This document shows, one piece after another, positions 10,296 through 18,029 of a stretch of 52,169 nucleotides of DNA (positions are counted from its first letter, which is position 1; each line of letters starts with the position of its first letter). The translations under genes and the position numbers were made by a program. Source of the DNA: an uncultured archaeon. Lineage in GTDB: Archaea > Asgardarchaeota > Lokiarchaeia > Sigyniarchaeales > SOKP01. The notes beneath the pieces are model-generated. The model searched no databases and was not told where the DNA came from. It saw only the letters and a list, made by a program, of their open reading frames with translations. Location: positions 3,271 through 55,439 of the forward strand of contig CAZWEM010000029.1 in assembly GCA_964632315.1 (NCBI GenBank), written 5' to 3'.

Positions 10296-11435
10296 TTAGC
10301 GTTTCTTTAGAAAATGTCTATAAATAAGCATGTAATTTTTTACGCTAATTATTTTAGGGTTTCGTCTATAACTGGAGGAGATAGGTGCACTACAGCGAGA
10401 ACATAAATTAGAGGTGTGCATCCAATCTTTAAATTCATCTGCGTGAGCTGGATGTTTACAATTTGGACATAAAACTACCCCCCTATTCTTATCTTCGGGA
10501 AGTTTTGGTAATTTAAAGCAAAAAATACATTTGAAATCTTCTTCTGAAATCATAGAACCTTTAGGTCTATATTTATTCAAATCTCGGACTTTAGCTAGAC
10601 TTTGTGAACTTTTAGTTTTTTTTGTAGTTTTAGTCCTTTGAACACGAGCATGGGTAGGTCTAATTCTGGAGTTTTGAGTTCTATTAGAGGTTGTACGCGC
10701 GCTTCTGTTGGAGGAGGGACTTTGAATATTCGATCTGACTCTACGAGTCGTCTGGCTTCTAGGAGTTGCCAAATCATTTATTCTTCTCGTTCTTCGTGCT
10801 ATATACTCTCTTGTCAATTCGGGCATACTAGATTTTTTTCCAAGAAAGCCAAAAATGAATAAATTGAAAATGGATATGATAAGCAGTAGTAAAAGATTAA
10901 GATCTAAAGAAAAACGGAGTGGTGTAAGAGCAGAATTAAACACCTCACTTACATTATAAAAAACAACCCAGTATAAAATGATAAAAATAATTAGTGAAAA
11001 TGCTAAAATAAACCCTAGTGCTCTCGCGTTCATCGACTTAGTTCTAAAATAGATTACTCTGTATTTTTTAAAACATCTATAAAGTGAATGTGACCCATAG
11101 ATCACGAAAGGGAGGCCAAATATAAGACTCCAAAAGCTAAAATAAAGATTAGAGCCAGAAATTAAGTTTTCACCCAAGATTCCAGTAAATGACCCCCAGA
11201 TGGAATAAAAAACTCCAATTAACAAGGGTACAATCACAAAAAAAGCAGTATTATAGGGCGAATTAAACTCCCTATGCCGCTTGATATTTTCAAAGAGTTT
11301 AATCGTAAAAACTAACCAGAATCCAATTAAAATCCACGTTATGAGATTATTCAATGAAGCCGAAATTAGACCATGAATCACTCCAATTAAAAAAAAAATA
11401 GTTAGGATTATTAGAATAGCTTTTCTTTTTACCAT
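10296..11435 (-). CDS. Polytopic membrane protein with C-terminal RING-H2-like zinc finger (putative membrane-anchored E3 ligase)
   Basis: About six hydrophobic helices, R/S/T-rich linker, then CIFC-x16-CPNCKHPAHADEFKDW-x6-CSRC; last gene of the Ubl-E1-E2-JAMM run. Confidence 0.8.
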   Translation of the reverse strand: MVKRKAILIILTIFFLIGVIHGLISASLNNLITWILIGFWLVFTIKLFENIKRHREFNSPYNTAFFVIVPLLIGVFYSIWGSFTGILGENLISGSNLYFSFWSLIFGLPFVIYGSHSLYRCFKKYRVIYFRTKSMNARALGFILAFSLIIFIILYWVVFYNVSEVFNSALTPLRFSLDLNLLLLLIISIFNLFIFGFLGKKSSMPELTREYIARRTRRINDLATPRSQTTRRVRSNIQSPSSNRSARTTSNRTQNSRIRPTHARVQRTKTTKKTKSSQSLAKVRDLNKYRPKGSMISEEDFKCIFCFKLPKLPEDKNRGVVLCPNCKHPAHADEFKDWMHTSNLCSRCSAPISSSYRRNPKIISVKNYMLIYRHFLKKR

Positions 11436-11458: not shown

Positions 11459-12265
11459 TTATTCATCATATTCTAAATAAGCAGGTTTTCCTTCGATTAT
11501 GGGATTCATGAAATCCAAAATCTCAGGTAACATTCCGATATCTAAGTTACCTTTTATATCGAAGGGAACAGAGAACCACTTCTTTTTATTTAAATTAGCA
11601 CGATAAATTTCAAAACCTAGAGATTTTCCATTTATCTTATATGGATCGATGACTAAAGCAATCGCTTTTTCCCATAACTTTTGATACCTTGCTTGAGTTC
11701 CCAAGTCTTCTCTTGACATAAAACATCCATATGATGGGTGGGAATGATACCATCCACAGATGAATAATTTATTCTTTTTAATATCCTTAAATGCCCTTAC
11801 ATAATTTTTATAATCCTTGATTTCAGCATACACTGCAGTACCGTGTCCCATTGGATAGGCATCTTCGATATGTAGAATATCGGAATTATTATCATACTTT
11901 CCAGCTAATAGTCCGATAACCTCTACCCAATCTTCCCTTCTAATGCTAGAGTGAGCATATTTTAATGCGTGGCTTGTTATTTTAAGGATTGCCTTTACAG
12001 TTATTTGGATGTTTGCAGTTGGTTTTTCATAACTTGCAACAGTTTTTATAGGTTCCATTGGGATGGGTTCAAGATTATCCTTAACTTCAACATCTATATG
12101 ATTCAATGGTTGGATATCAATTAGCTCTGATGTTAACTCTTCTTGAAGTTCTTCTTCTATTTGTAATTCTGTATAAATCTCTTCTAGCAATTCTTGTTTT
12201 ATTTTCTCCTTAATTTTTTGTTTAATTGCTTCTTTGATAGCAGCGCTATTTTTATCGGTATTCAT
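11459..12265 (-). CDS. MPN+/JAMM metalloprotease (Rpn11/CSN5-like deconjugase)
   Basis: EVIGLL, GWYHSHPSYGCFMSRED (H-x-H-x7-S-x2-D), ALVIDP; likely start ATG 12265 behind GGTGA overlapping the E2 stop. Confidence 0.92.
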   Translation of the reverse strand: MNTDKNSAAIKEAIKQKIKEKIKQELLEEIYTELQIEEELQEELTSELIDIQPLNHIDVEVKDNLEPIPMEPIKTVASYEKPTANIQITVKAILKITSHALKYAHSSIRREDWVEVIGLLAGKYDNNSDILHIEDAYPMGHGTAVYAEIKDYKNYVRAFKDIKKNKLFICGWYHSHPSYGCFMSREDLGTQARYQKLWEKAIALVIDPYKINGKSLGFEIYRANLNKKKWFSVPFDIKGNLDIGMLPEILDFMNPIIEGKPAYLEYDE

Positions 12266-12272
12266 GGTATAC

Positions 12273-12800
12273 TCACCATTTATCCTTTGCATACTTCTTG
12301 ACTAAATTTTTTACCTTTTTCTCAAACATTTTTTGATTTTTCATCATTTCCAAGGCTGCCTTCTTATTAAAAACATCCGTTGGATTAACGTATTTTCCGC
12401 GAGTATTTAGCATTGCAATTATGGCTTGAACGACGGTAACAGCTGTTTTTGAAGGGCTCCATCCCCCTTTTTTTCCGACTAAAGAAGGATCGACTAGAGC
12501 TAGACAGATATTCCTCTGTCCTTTATATTCACTCGGTTTTGGCCAAAAGTTTGGATGCCAAATGGGTGTGTGTAATCTCACAAAAGGAGGTTGCTTTGGA
12601 TATTGAGCTGGAAATTTCATTTCTAATTTAAATAATCCTCCTGCGTATGCTGTTCCTTTAGGGCCTTTAATTGTTATAGCAACATGATCGATACTTTTTC
12701 TTTTCGGATCAAAGGGTTTTAGTTGAACAATTGTCCCTTCTTTCAACATTTTTTTAAGTCCAGCAAAATCTCGCGAAACTCGACTACTTCTTATACTCAT
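12273..12800 (-). CDS. Ubiquitin-conjugating enzyme E2 (UBC fold)
   Basis: IKGPKGTAYAGGLF, FPAQYPKQPP, IWHPN, catalytic ICL, WSPS. Confidence 0.93.
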   Translation of the reverse strand: MSIRSSRVSRDFAGLKKMLKEGTIVQLKPFDPKRKSIDHVAITIKGPKGTAYAGGLFKLEMKFPAQYPKQPPFVRLHTPIWHPNFWPKPSEYKGQRNICLALVDPSLVGKKGGWSPSKTAVTVVQAIIAMLNTRGKYVNPTDVFNKKAALEMMKNQKMFEKKVKNLVKKYAKDKW

Positions 12801-12859: not shown

Positions 12860-14095
12860 TTATTTTAACTTAAGCGTAACCATAATTTCTCCCCCTTTAA
12901 AACCCGCTATCGTCAAAAATTCATAATTTCTCAAATTATTTTCGATAACTGTCTTTTCTAAATCCAATATGATTATATCGTTAAAATCTTGTAAAGTCAT
13001 TAATGGTTCGAGGTCGGGATCCAATTGAAAACCATTCTTCTTCAAAATTTTTATAATATTAATACAAGGAGATCGTTTGCTCATTTTTATAACTACTCTT
13101 CTTACACCTTTCCCACATTGAATGCATTCAGGATTTCGTTTTTTCTCAATGTGATAAAATTTCATAGTCATCGCATTAAATATGACGTAATCTGATTCAG
13201 GTTTTCCTAAACCTTTATGTCCTTTTTCCCAATGAATGATTTTCACGGCTTCATGGGATTGGAGGGCAGAAATAACCGCATTAATCGTGATTATTCCTGG
13301 ATCGTGTCGATCAATTAATTTGACTATGTCATCTTGAGTATATTCGGGCAAGAAATTATATTTGTTTACTAATTCATTTGCAGTTTTTTGAATGAATTTA
13401 ATATCATTTAAATTTTTAGGATTCGGTTCTCTTTCAAATTTTTCCTTAAAAGCCATATCCCCTTTAAATACACAATGAATTCTTTTCCTAGGAATTCCCA
13501 CCACGGTGCAAGCAGCCATTTCATCGTTTTCTACCACCGGCAAGGGATTACATTCATAGCAAGCATTCTTATAAGGAAATATCGTGTAGATATGTCCATG
13601 ATAACCAGAAACTCCTCCATCAACTAAAGGTTTTCTAAACCGGATACATTGTGCATTTAAGTTCAATCTGGCGTTCATAGAATCAAGTCCTCCAATAATA
13701 ACATCAGCATTATAGTACAAGGAAGGATCTAACCTTTCTAAAGAGGTATGGTATCCTATGACGGTGATATTTGGATTAATTTCTCTCAATTTTTTTGCGG
13801 CTACAATAGCTTTAGGCTCACCTAGTCTAGCATCTGTAAAAAGAATTTGTCTGTTTAAATTTGAATGTTCAATAATGTCTAAATCGACGAGATCCAAATG
13901 ACCCACTCCTAACATAGCTAGGTTTTTAGCAATTTCACATCCTAATCCACCTACTCCAATAATTAAGACTCTCGCATTTTTAACTAATTTCTGAGACCAT
14001 CCTTCTAAACGGAATTGCCTGTCATATAAATCTCGTTCTTCCATTGACATTCCTTTTGCAAAAAAATCTGATTCTTTAACCAACCACATCACCAA
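12860..14095 (-). CDS. Ubiquitin-like activating enzyme E1 (ThiF/UBA3-like, with C-terminal ubiquitin-fold domain)
   Basis: LYDRQ, GVGGLG, DLDIIEHSNLNRQ, CYEC and CIQC zinc pairs, catalytic-Cys segment AACTVVGIPRKRIHC; exact start uncertain (14095 to about 14050). Confidence 0.93.
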   Translation of the reverse strand: MVMWLVKESDFFAKGMSMEERDLYDRQFRLEGWSQKLVKNARVLIIGVGGLGCEIAKNLAMLGVGHLDLVDLDIIEHSNLNRQILFTDARLGEPKAIVAAKKLREINPNITVIGYHTSLERLDPSLYYNADVIIGGLDSMNARLNLNAQCIRFRKPLVDGGVSGYHGHIYTIFPYKNACYECNPLPVVENDEMAACTVVGIPRKRIHCVFKGDMAFKEKFEREPNPKNLNDIKFIQKTANELVNKYNFLPEYTQDDIVKLIDRHDPGIITINAVISALQSHEAVKIIHWEKGHKGLGKPESDYVIFNAMTMKFYHIEKKRNPECIQCGKGVRRVVIKMSKRSPCINIIKILKKNGFQLDPDLEPLMTLQDFNDIIILDLEKTVIENNLRNYEFLTIAGFKGGEIMVTLKLK

Positions 14096-14172: not shown

Positions 14173-14505
14173 TTAAACGTATCCAGCAGTACTCGCAGGT
14201 ATTAAAAGAATATCGTCACCATCATTAACGTTATAGTCTTTTAATTGATTGCTTTCGTCCATCGTAACACCACCAGATGAGAGATGGAACTCATCTGGGT
14301 CAAGTCCAAATAAATTTCCTAAAGTATGTTTAATATCGCTTACCTGATTAGCATCATTCACGACCAATTTCTCTTTCTTTTCACCAGGACCAATAGTTGA
14401 CATAAAATACAATGTCACTTTTCGACCTGTAGAGGGGACCTTACTTGATGGGGTTTTAGATTTAACTGGTTCTAATTCCTCATCAAAATCGTCATCAAAA
14501 CTCAT
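14173..14505 (-). CDS. Ubiquitin-like (UFM1-like) modifier 1 with acidic N-terminal tail
   Basis: Beta-grasp pattern KVTLYF...LKDYNVNDGDDILLIPASTAG-YV; first gene of the E1/E2/JAMM/RING run; GTGA upstream. Confidence 0.85.
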   Translation of the reverse strand: MSFDDDFDEELEPVKSKTPSSKVPSTGRKVTLYFMSTIGPGEKKEKLVVNDANQVSDIKHTLGNLFGLDPDEFHLSSGGVTMDESNQLKDYNVNDGDDILLIPASTAGYV

Positions 14506-15519: not shown

Positions 15520-16314
15520 ATGAAGAAAAATTCTCGCATTTATTGGACATTAGCTTTGTATCTTATTTTTACAGTATTATACCTACTTTTCTTCATTTTA
15601 AAGATAGATAATTTTCCCTTATTTATCATTTTGACAATCTCTAGCGCTATGGTACTTTCCAGTAGCACTATTTATACTATTTCCCGATCTACAATCACTC
15701 ATAAAAGCCCCACCCCCAAAATTAAACTTTCTCCAACAAAGAAAACATTGGGTAAATTTACTTCAGAATTAATTGAAGATTATTTTGAAGCAATGCCAAT
15801 AATCGACCAGTACGCCGATTCAGACGCCCCTTATGAGGAAATTTCCCGAATAGACGAATATGTTTTTACAGAATTTAATAACGAGGATCTAATGAAAATT
15901 GATAGCTTAAAATTATCAAAAATGGACAAGATTTTTTTTCTGAGGGAAATGCTTTACTTTGAACCTAATGAAAGGAGATATTTAATCAATGAGATGCTTA
16001 AATATCAAGAAGACCCAAATATACCCGTTTCATATACTCCATTAATAACCCCTTTTGGTATTGAAGATAAATTACGAATCTATTCTCGGTCATTGATAGA
16101 ACCAGGAGAAAAAACAAAGATAATTATTATTGAAAAATCAGATTTTATTAGCGAAGTGAAACTTAAAATTGGGACTTTATTCGATTATGATTTGGATGAT
16201 TTTGTTTTATCGTCTGGAGGGATTATATTAGATGAAAAATTGCAAATTAATCATTATAATATCGAAGATGATGATGAAATTGCTATTATACCCTCAAGAA
16301 AAGAAAGAAAATAA
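15520..16314 (+). CDS. Two-TM membrane protein with C-terminal Ubl domain paralogous to the modifiers (no terminal Gly)
   Basis: Two N-terminal hydrophobic helices; C-terminal 80 aa about 31/80 identical (manual, ungapped) to Ubl1 (PGEK, LSSGG, DE, IP) ending SRKERK. Confidence 0.8.
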   Translation: MKKNSRIYWTLALYLIFTVLYLLFFILKIDNFPLFIILTISSAMVLSSSTIYTISRSTITHKSPTPKIKLSPTKKTLGKFTSELIEDYFEAMPIIDQYADSDAPYEEISRIDEYVFTEFNNEDLMKIDSLKLSKMDKIFFLREMLYFEPNERRYLINEMLKYQEDPNIPVSYTPLITPFGIEDKLRIYSRSLIEPGEKTKIIIIEKSDFISEVKLKIGTLFDYDLDDFVLSSGGIILDEKLQINHYNIEDDDEIAIIPSRKERK

Positions 16315-16315
16315 A

Positions 16316-16735
16316 TTAAATGTTTATTTTACCAGCTGTACTAGCTGGAATTAATAATATATCATCTCCATCACTCACATGATAATCACTCAAATGAGTT
16401 CTTTCATCCATAGTGATACCTCCAGAAGATAAATGAAAATCGACTGGATCCAGTCCAAAAATATTAGCGACGGTTTCTTTAATTGCACCAACAAGATTTC
16501 CTGTATTTACTAATAATTTTTGCTTTTTTTCCCCTGGACCAATAGTAGACATAAAAAAGACGGATATTTTGTCACCTTCAACGGATACCTCTGGTGTCTT
16601 AGTTGAAGGTTCTAAATCTGGAGACTTTGAAGGCGGTCCCTCAAGCGATTCTTCTGAATCATCTCCTAAATCTTCATCTAGATCTTCATCAAATTCTTCA
16701 TCGAATTCATCATCAAACTCTTCGTCAAAATCCAT
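16316..16735 (-). CDS. Ubiquitin-like (UFM1-like) modifier 2 with long acidic N-terminal tail
   Basis: True start likely MDFDEEF at 16735 (GGTG upstream); core 56/80 identical to Ubl1 by manual alignment; ends LIPASTAG-KINI. Confidence 0.85.
   Translation of the reverse strand: MDFDEEFDDEFDEEFDEDLDEDLGDDSEESLEGPPSKSPDLEPSTKTPEVSVEGDKISVFFMSTIGPGEKKQKLLVNTGNLVGAIKETVANIFGLDPVDFHLSSGGITMDERTHLSDYHVSDGDDILLIPASTAGKINI
16669..16732 (-). repeat. Imperfect 12-bp/4-aa coding repeat (DFDE EFDD EFDE EFDE DLDE DL)
   Basis: F/L every fourth residue in a D/E tract; tcttcatc/tcatc units on + strand. Confidence 0.65.
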
Positions 16736-16871
16736 TTTTAGCACACCAAATATATCTAAGTAATTAATAGAATTTATAGTATATAAAAATATGAGAAAAC
16801 TTAAGAAAGCAAACACTTTAGAAGCTGTCTTGATATAAATATAATATAGAAAATTATTGAGTGTTCTAAAG

Positions 16872-18029
16872 ATGGATGAAAAACCTATTCCCAAGCAACA
16901 GATTCGAGAAAAACTTCCTAAAGAGGAATTAGATGCAGATTTTGATTCTGACTTGTTGAGAAAAATAAGGAAGGAAAGATTTAAATTGAGCAAGGAAAAA
17001 GAGGAATGGGAAAAAATATTGAACAAAATCCAAGAATATGATGAAAGTATCGAAGATCTAGAAAAGAAAAGAAAACAAAAAGAAATCGAACTTAGAAATC
17101 TAGTAAATCAGAATGAAAAACTTAAAAATGAGTTAGAAAAAAATAATAATGAAATTAAACAAGCAAATAGCATTCTAAAATCGAGAGAGAAAGAATTAAA
17201 TCAAAAAATTGATGATTTAAATAAATATAAACAGAAATTGGATAAGATTAGAGATGATATTGAAGAAGAAAGAAAAAAATTAAAACAAGAGAAAGATAAA
17301 GCTGAAGAACGCATAGAAAAAATTAAAACCAAAATTCCAGGCATGGAAAGAAGAGAGAATGCGTTAGAACGAACAGTCAATGATTTTGAAGATAAACTTC
17401 AAAATCTAAGGAATGAACTGAGAGAATTAACTAACAAAAGAAACTCTCTTAACAAGGAATTAAGTGATTTAAAGAGACAAATGGTGGATGAAAAAAATAG
17501 AATAGATGAAGAGAAAAAAAAATTAAAAGAAGAAAGAGATAAAAACCGAATAAAAAAGAATGAATTAAAATCATTAAATCGAGATATAGAAAATAAACAA
17601 GACAAACTAGAAAAGGAACAAGATAAAAGAGAAAGAGAAATCAAGTCGTTGGAACGGAAAAAATCGAATCTGGAATCAAGATTAAAGGAATTAGAAAAAA
17701 AAATTCCAAAATATGAGAACCAGTATTATTCTAATCAAGATAAAATAAAAGATTCTGAAGAAAAGATTAAAAAATTAAATTCTGACGTAAAAAAGTTGGA
17801 AAATGAAAAAGCAAAGCTCGCTTCTGAAATCAGAAATAAAGAAAAAGCGATAATGAAAGAAGATTCAAGAATAAGAGAAGAAAAAAATGCTATCAAAAAA
17901 GAAAGAGAAAAACTCGAAAAAGATAAAGCTCGTTTTATTAGGGAAAAAAGAGATTTTGAAAAATCATTAATAAAAGCAAAGAGTATACCAAAAACAAAAA
18001 TTAAGTCAAAAACTCCTTCTAAATATTAG
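16872..18029 (+). CDS. Long coiled-coil protein, function unknown
   Basis: About 340 aa of nearly uninterrupted K/E/L heptads, no ATPase motifs; likely ATG 16872. Confidence 0.75.
   Translation: MDEKPIPKQQIREKLPKEELDADFDSDLLRKIRKERFKLSKEKEEWEKILNKIQEYDESIEDLEKKRKQKEIELRNLVNQNEKLKNELEKNNNEIKQANSILKSREKELNQKIDDLNKYKQKLDKIRDDIEEERKKLKQEKDKAEERIEKIKTKIPGMERRENALERTVNDFEDKLQNLRNELRELTNKRNSLNKELSDLKRQMVDEKNRIDEEKKKLKEERDKNRIKKNELKSLNRDIENKQDKLEKEQDKREREIKSLERKKSNLESRLKELEKKIPKYENQYYSNQDKIKDSEEKIKKLNSDVKKLENEKAKLASEIRNKEKAIMKEDSRIREEKNAIKKEREKLEKDKARFIREKRDFEKSLIKAKSIPKTKIKSKTPSKY

Follow-up and report, generated by a model that had tools for sequence, protein, structure and literature searches.

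The window, a stretch of 52,169 nucleotides from a Loki-type Asgard archaeon with a GC content of ~31%, carries a co-oriented minus-strand run of genes of a ubiquitin-like modifier (Ubl) operon. The run encodes a Ubl precursor, an E1, an E2, a JAB/MPN (JAMM) metalloprotease and, as the final gene, a 379-residue protein with six transmembrane (TM) helices and a predicted C-terminal RING, hereafter TM-RING (Table 1). The TM-RING reading frame opens with ATG, its homologues share the starting MVKKK, and folE2 comes after it in the window. The E2 and JAB reading frames share 20 nt (12273-12292), and 23 nt separate the JAB stop from the start of TM-RING, a spacing consistent with co-transcription and translational coupling. 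The products of both Ubl genes (14173-14505 and 16316-16735, minus strand) end in STAG plus a short tail (YV and KINI, respectively), not in Gly-Gly, and have acidic, Phe-periodic N-terminal extensions. The second Ubl gene adjoins a Lys/Glu-rich reading frame of 390 residues (16857-18029, plus strand), nearly all of which is coiled-coil-like.

Table 1. Positions of the TM-RING gene, its parts and its operon partners in the window.
Feature	Residues	Coordinates	Strand	Evidence
Whole gene, six-TM RING protein, final Ubl-operon gene	1-379	10296..11435	-	ORF list; homologues
C-terminal helix, packs onto RING	365-378	10302..10343	-	AF2 pLDDT ~96; structural matches to dimeric RINGs/U-boxes reach residue 379
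RING domain (predicted): beta-hairpin 320-322/329-331, helix 332-341	296-352	10380..10550	-	
Zinc-ligand motif	C303..C348	10392..10529	-	Translation; column counts; alignments to RNF24 and Odin srfp
Trp338 codon, E2-contact Trp position	338	10422..10424	-	61/61
Glu334 codon, RING ligand position 6	334	10434..10436	-	60/61 Glu; opposite Cys6 of RNF24 and His of Odin srfp
Disordered Arg/Lys/Ser/Thr-rich tether	224-295	10551..10766	-	pLDDT <50 for 233-279
Basic juxtamembrane helix	209-223	10767..10811	-	AF2; R215 kept in 45/61
TM helix 6	179-197	10845..10901	-	AF2; hydropathy
TM helix 5	137-162	10950..11027	-	AF2; hydropathy
Basic cytoplasmic beta-hairpin, loop with 7 K/R	127-136	11028..11057	-	DSSP of both AF2 models
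TM helix 4, contains P109, kept in 55/61	101-123	11067..11135	-	AF2; alignment
TM helix 3	64-80	11196..11246	-	AF2; hydropathy
TM helix 2, leads into conserved cytoplasmic loop R-E-F-N-S-P-x-N-T	28-56	11268..11354	-	AF2; hydropathy; conservation
TM helix 1, cytoplasmic KRK before helix	2-25	11361..11432	-	AF2 helices; KD peak 2.82
JAB/MPN (Rpn11-like) metalloprotease, upstream operon partner		11459..12292	-	Pfam JAB 1.7e-16; adjoins TM-RING gene in 12/12 loci
E2 (UQ_con), presumed RING partner		12273..12800	-	Pfam 2.5e-26
E1 (ThiF family)		12860..14095	-	Pfam 3.8e-60
Ubl precursor, C-terminus ...STAG-YV		14173..14505	-	ORF; operon head in 11/12 loci

When the proteins of the window were used in tblastn searches, E1, E2, JAB and TM-RING were found in the same order and orientation in 12 of 12 operon loci, drawn from five GTDB families (f1, f3, f7, f16 and f28). 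A Ubl gene precedes this block in 11 of the 12, often with a second Ubl close by; at the twelfth (L041) E1 was matched only in part, and no Ubl was found, its place being off the aligned stretch. Across the loci the identity of TM-RING drops to 24-26%, whereas that of the E2 holds steady at 57-59%. The archaeon's own genome has a single full-length E2 match, the operon E2 itself, and encodes several RING proteins besides TM-RING. The E1 and E2 of clusters that carry a small RING are ~33-36% identical to those of the window, and the present arrangement is therefore a distinct operon type. The pair noted at 15520-16314 (plus strand) recurred, among the 12 loci, only in the same-genus locus L043.

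The full-length AF2 model of TM-RING, built with 87 homologues, has a mean pLDDT of 86.3, with values of ~95 in the TM region and ~96 in the RING, and a model of the TM region alone agrees with it (pLDDT 87.4, pTM 0.80). Hydropathy scan and models concur on six TM helices, as counted approximately in an initial annotation of the locus. The same annotation had placed both termini in the cytoplasm and described an Arg/Ser/Thr-rich linker between membrane and RING, and these points, too, were borne out. K and R number 3, 3, 7 and 10 in the N-terminus and alternate loops vs 0, 0 and 1 on the opposite side, and by the positive-inside rule the protein should therefore be N-in/C-in, with a cytoplasmic RING on the same side as the E2. 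The tether region (residues 200-295) contains 18 R, 9 K, 14 S and 13 T in 96 residues, and the model shows it as disordered. Its counterparts in 61 diverse family members are similarly composed (R 17%, K 8%, S 17%, T 12%) and 52-161 residues long. A crude hydropathy count gave six hydrophobic segments in 43 of these 61; the RING is C-terminal in all of them, with 87-193 residues between the last TM helix and the first zinc-ligand Cys and 26-46 residues beyond the last.

The RING is the most conserved part of the protein, with a mean column identity of 0.60 vs 0.36 in the TM region. Outside it, conservation exceeding 70% over the whole family is confined, in the TM region and its flank, to F66, P109, Y125 and R215. 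Conservation of the TM region is striking among Loki-type genomes, where motifs such as R-E-F-N-S-P-H-N-T-x-F-F and Y-R-C-F-K-K-Y mark its cytoplasmic face. Several candidate relationships of the membrane domain were rejected. An internal 3+3 repeat of the bundle received an hhalign probability of 1.9%, Pfam produced only scattered chance matches to the TM region (e.g. PFF1_TM in 8 members), and a match to the calcium-sensing receptor in a PDB profile search (E 4.8e-5) was discounted as compositional because it spans the TM helices and the low-complexity tether. A search of the ESM Atlas for look-alikes of the TM domain gave no usable match.

The zinc-ligand motif translates exactly as first annotated, and the segment E-F-K-D-W (10422-10436, minus strand) indeed puts Glu at RING ligand position 6 with Trp four residues on. 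The ligand columns were counted in 61 diverse homologues with identities down to ~20%. C303, C306, C323, C326, H331, W338, C345 and C348 are present in all 61 and E334 in 60, the one remaining homologue having Ala. Position 328 is variable (Y28/H18/F7/R5/K3) and D333 is kept in just 33. The resulting family pattern, C-x2-C-x(12-17)-C-x2-C-x4-H-x2-E-x3-W-x6-C-x2-C or C4-H-E-C2, is conserved far beyond chance, and the ligand spacing of the 61 sequences fits a cross-brace. Instead of the eight Cys/His of a classical RING, the family has seven invariant Cys/His and Glu334 at ligand 6. A RING-H2 has His at ligands 4 and 5 and Cys at 6; the variability of H328 and the Glu at 334 exclude the family from this class, and the initial reading of H-x2-H as a ligand pair had to be given up. 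The seven invariant Cys/His ligands likewise separate the domain from U-boxes, which have the RING fold without zinc ligands. Around the ligands, the hydrophobic residue before C2 (F305) is F/I/V/L in 60 of 61 members, R347 between C7 and C8 is kept in 56, and the Pro after C7 is replaced by Ser in 45. Residue 349, directly after C8, is N/D/S/G/A/E/T and never K/R, so that the canonical linchpin is missing.

Profile alignments and the modelled fold identify the domain as a true RING, although it scores below threshold in Pfam. Aligned by hhalign with an 81-residue operon RING of Odinarchaeum yellowstonii (P0239), which itself carries PF14446 and PF13639, the family obtained a probability of 97.4% (E 1.3e-11), with E334 opposite the second His; BLASTP gave 2e-7 for the same protein. 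A PDB profile search matched the RING-H2 of RNF24 at E 0.001 with the ligand columns all in register (C326=C3, 328=H4, H331=H5, E334=C6, W338=Trp, C345/C348=C7/C8). In the AF2 model, residues 296-358 form a compact C-terminal domain, capped by helix 365-378, that matches RING/U-box folds, with U-boxes (3lrq, CHIP, Prp19) appearing as often as RINGs. The initial annotation had set a non-RING zinc finger against its own proposal; both the Odinarchaeum alignment and the model come down on the side of a RING. In Pfam, TM-RING reached 16.8 bits against zf-RING_16 (cut-off 27.4), and no family member passes a RING cut-off, the best scoring 26.2 vs 27.3 (zf-RING_2). Sub-threshold matches were obtained to Prok-RING_1 in 23 of the 61 members, zf-RING_16 in 20 and zf-RING_2 in 17, several of them spanning the whole zf-RING_2 model.

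From these alignments we infer a first zinc site of C303, C306, H331 and E334 (Cys2-His-Glu) and a second of four Cys (C323, C326, C345 and C348), in which the first Cys of CPNC would replace ligand 4. It had been suggested earlier that either the Glu or the extra CPNC Cys completes the second site. The part concerning the Cys holds, as this residue is invariant and would stand in for the variable His4; Glu334, assigned to site 1 with C303, C306 and H331, would have no part in the second. As a ligand, Glu is uncommon in structural zinc sites, and Glu334 may instead not bind the metal, leaving site 1 three-coordinate plus water, or partly zinc-free and held by U-box-like hydrogen bonds and salt bridges, with the Glu kept for E2/Ubl contact or regulation. 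The rarity of Glu in structural Cys/His sites, the Ala of one natural variant and the frequency of U-boxes among the best structural matches would agree with this. We nevertheless regard it as rather unlikely. The remaining three ligands of site 1 are invariant, and in the AF2 model strand 329-331 is followed at once by the central helix (332-341), with E334 in its first turn, where ligand 6 is located in a RING. Moreover, related RINGs have a conventional ligand at this position. In Asgard lineages that lack the six-TM family, RINGs follow the pattern C-x2-C-x13-CPxC-x4-H-x2-H-x3-W-x6-CPxC with His at ligand 6, among them small soluble ones beside E2/E1 (RING-E2-E1 in Odin, JAMM-RING-E2-E1 in another genome), while Cys occupies it in RNF24 and in a canonical RING-H2 of the archaeon's own genome (L045; Trp at +4, CPLC, linchpin Arg). 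The Glu site is therefore a metal-ligand position in every relative examined, and a zinc-binding Glu334 is the reading we prefer.

The family is large and almost exclusively Asgard. More than 369 full-length relatives (56-95% identity) were found in a word-indexed search, all of them 'hypothetical' and all from Asgard MAGs, and an exhaustive search with HMMER through 1.84 billion cluster representatives extended the family to 119 clusters (50% identity level), reaching ~25% identity; ~60 of the clusters are full length. In a set of 400 genomes from the phylum, matches over the full length (E < ~1e-80) occurred in at least 10 GTDB families belonging to more than one class, with RING-level matches only in the remaining lineages. 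Species-representative genomes yielded 160 loci, of which the best 80 all lie in Asgard (Promethearchaeota) MAGs bar one contig. This exception (L113, DATKTW010000176.1), a 15.5-kb contig in a 'Nanopelagicaceae bacterium' MAG with a copy 59% identical to the window gene, is most likely a mis-binned Asgard contig. Homologues are also present in closed genomes, e.g. one single-contig genome of 6.0 Mb, making experiments feasible.

Some loci found in these searches deviate from the standard gene. In genus g41 of family f13, nine genomes have a single in-frame TAA within the family match (e.g. G022:C159:22212-23318); the open frame is nonetheless ~360-390 residues long, and the stop probably falls close to one end of the match. 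At L071 (G082:C1:130492-133866), three tandem paralogues of ~210 residues, all having 2-3 hydrophobic segments and, at the C-terminus, a C4-H2-C2 RING, look like an array of small membrane-anchored RINGs in another Asgard lineage. A 195-residue frame in the archaeon's own genome, outside the window (G000:C95:117-524), has a weak UQ_con match (E 0.002) followed by a weak Prok-RING_1 match (E 0.12) and could be a fusion of an E2/UEV-like and a RING-like domain.

The strict retention of the Ubl-E1-E2-JAMM-RING operon makes a membrane E3 the best-supported role for TM-RING, which is probably the ligase that the operon places in the membrane. The combined data suggest a model, which we consider likely as a whole, of a membrane-embedded RING E3 of the Loki-type operon: six TM helices in an N-in/C-in topology would hold a tethered cross-brace RING with a Cys2-His-Glu site, which would recruit the E2 and promote Ubl transfer near the membrane. 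Of these points, the architecture and the conservation, the kinship with operon RINGs, the RING fold as predicted and the linkage to the operon are shown here. E2 binding, E3 activity and membrane substrates are inferred, as is zinc binding by the Glu. In the proposed sequence of events, the JAMM enzyme would mature the Ubl and later take the tag off, the RING would bind the Ubl-charged operon E2 via F305 and Trp338, and the Ubl would be passed from the E2 to lysines on proteins in or near the membrane. The basic disordered tether of 70-100 residues would give the C-terminal RING its reach, while the TM bundle and the conserved cytoplasmic loops may choose partner or location. Such a use of F305 and Trp338 has a precedent in the small RING finger protein (srfp) of Caldiarchaeum subterraneum, an active E3 that needs the equivalent Ile and Trp (W58) (PMC5654768), and a Helarchaeial operon RING is an active E3 as well (10.1101/2023.07.25.550441).

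The absent linchpin, the uniformly sub-threshold Pfam scores and the homologue with Ala334 count against this model, and the canonical soluble RINGs of the same genome could serve the operon E2 as alternatives. The RING might be non-catalytic, acting as a membrane dock or scaffold for E2, JAMM, Ubl tags or others without activating E2~Ubl, in the manner of the RING-like fingers of GATOR2/SEA and IFT-A. Profile and structural matches to such non-catalytic fingers of IFT-A (WDR19, E 0.015; 8bbg, prob 0.98) and GATOR2/SEA would fit this role, as would the missing linchpin, the low Pfam scores and the usual Ser in place of Pro after C7. This is improbable, however, given the invariant E2-contact Trp and the nearly invariant hydrophobic residue before C2, the constant position of the gene in the RING slot of the operon beside E1/E2, and the fact that homologous small operon RINGs are proven E3s.

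Many Asgard archaea, then, carry the operon RING on a conserved six-TM protein, which offers a clonable candidate route for Ubl tags to membrane proteins and a naturally occurring RING in which a carboxylate occupies one of the zinc-ligand positions. We further propose, tentatively, that in Loki-type Asgard archaea, and in several further lineages of the phylum, the core Ubl operon is coupled to the membrane, a dedicated polytopic E3 tagging membrane proteins for ESCRT sorting or for extraction by Cdc48/proteasome, with an undescribed and maybe labile or regulated Cys2-His-Glu site. If true, such a membrane-coupled operon would parallel in prokaryotes, without having to be ancestral to it, the quality control of membrane proteins in eukaryotes. 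RING ligases with a polytopic membrane domain (Hrd1, MARCH and the Pex RINGs, for example) are regarded as innovations of eukaryotes, linked to their endomembrane system. Ubiquitin binding by Asgard ESCRT-I/II components is known (PMC9192718), and where ERAD evolution is reviewed, the archaeal cascade appears solely as a soluble and 'primitive' one (PMC13328587). No description of a six-TM or otherwise polytopic operon RING was found in PMC5654768 and its supplement, 10.1101/2023.07.25.550441, PMC9192718, PMC10936438, PMC13328587, PMC13734099 or PMC11354881; in the first of these the word 'transmembrane' is absent, and its supplement mentions membranes just in the context of ESCRT.

In Hrd1/gp78, as in TM-RING, a cytosolic RING follows a polytopic membrane domain; that of Hrd1/gp78 works with a cytosolic E2. 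Eight TM helices, which form the retrotranslocon half-channel, are followed closely by a RING-H2 (C3H2C3) in Hrd1/gp78, whereas TM-RING has six TM helices and a C4-H-E-C2 RING, and its family keeps 87-193 residues between the last TM helix and the first RING Cys. Homology of the TM bundle to these retrotranslocation ligases, which would make TM-RING an archaeal forerunner of the ERAD ligase-channel, is highly improbable. The structural likeness of the bundles is inconsistent and in the range of noise, and sequence similarity is nil; the likeness to Hrd1 would be architectural only, as the initial annotation had cautioned. The RING-CH/RINGv domains (C4HC3) of MARCH/Doa10 and PHD-type spacing share with TM-RING the order C4-H-x-C2 and a Trp four residues after ligand 6, and MARCH/Doa10 are likewise membrane-anchored, but with the RING N-terminal to the TM helices. 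Their ligand 6 is Cys and their C4-H5 spacing ~7, as opposed to Glu and a spacing of 4 in TM-RING, and no MARCH or PHD matches appeared in the PDB profile and structural searches.

The Prok-RING_1 (PF14446) and zf-RING_2 (PF13639) models have, as far as compared, neither a Glu at ligand 6 nor a six-TM module. Burroughs, Iyer and Aravind in 2011 reportedly described prokaryotic RINGs in Ub-like operon neighbourhoods, some with TM helices, and the present family may overlap with these. Several TM-anchored RINGs of other architectures occur in other Asgard genomes, so that a 'prokaryotic membrane E3' is not unique to TM-RING. The closest known systems are the srfp E3s (Caldiarchaeum, Helarchaeial, Odinarchaeum P0239). 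These are soluble proteins of 80-100 residues, in contrast to the 379-residue TM-RING with its six-TM bundle and ~100-residue tether, and their operon order is RING-E2-E1 in place of Ubl-E1-E2-JAMM-RING. Ligand 6 is His (Odin, others) or Cys (PMC5654768) in srfp and Glu in TM-RING, and ligands 7-8 lie in CPxC in the former and in C-S-R-C in the latter. Common to both are homologous RINGs encoded beside E1/E2/Ub/JAMM genes, the hydrophobic residue before C2, the Trp four residues after ligand 6, and the CPxC knuckle, whose Cys in the Caldiarchaeum srfp is the 'C3B' Cys (PMC5654768).
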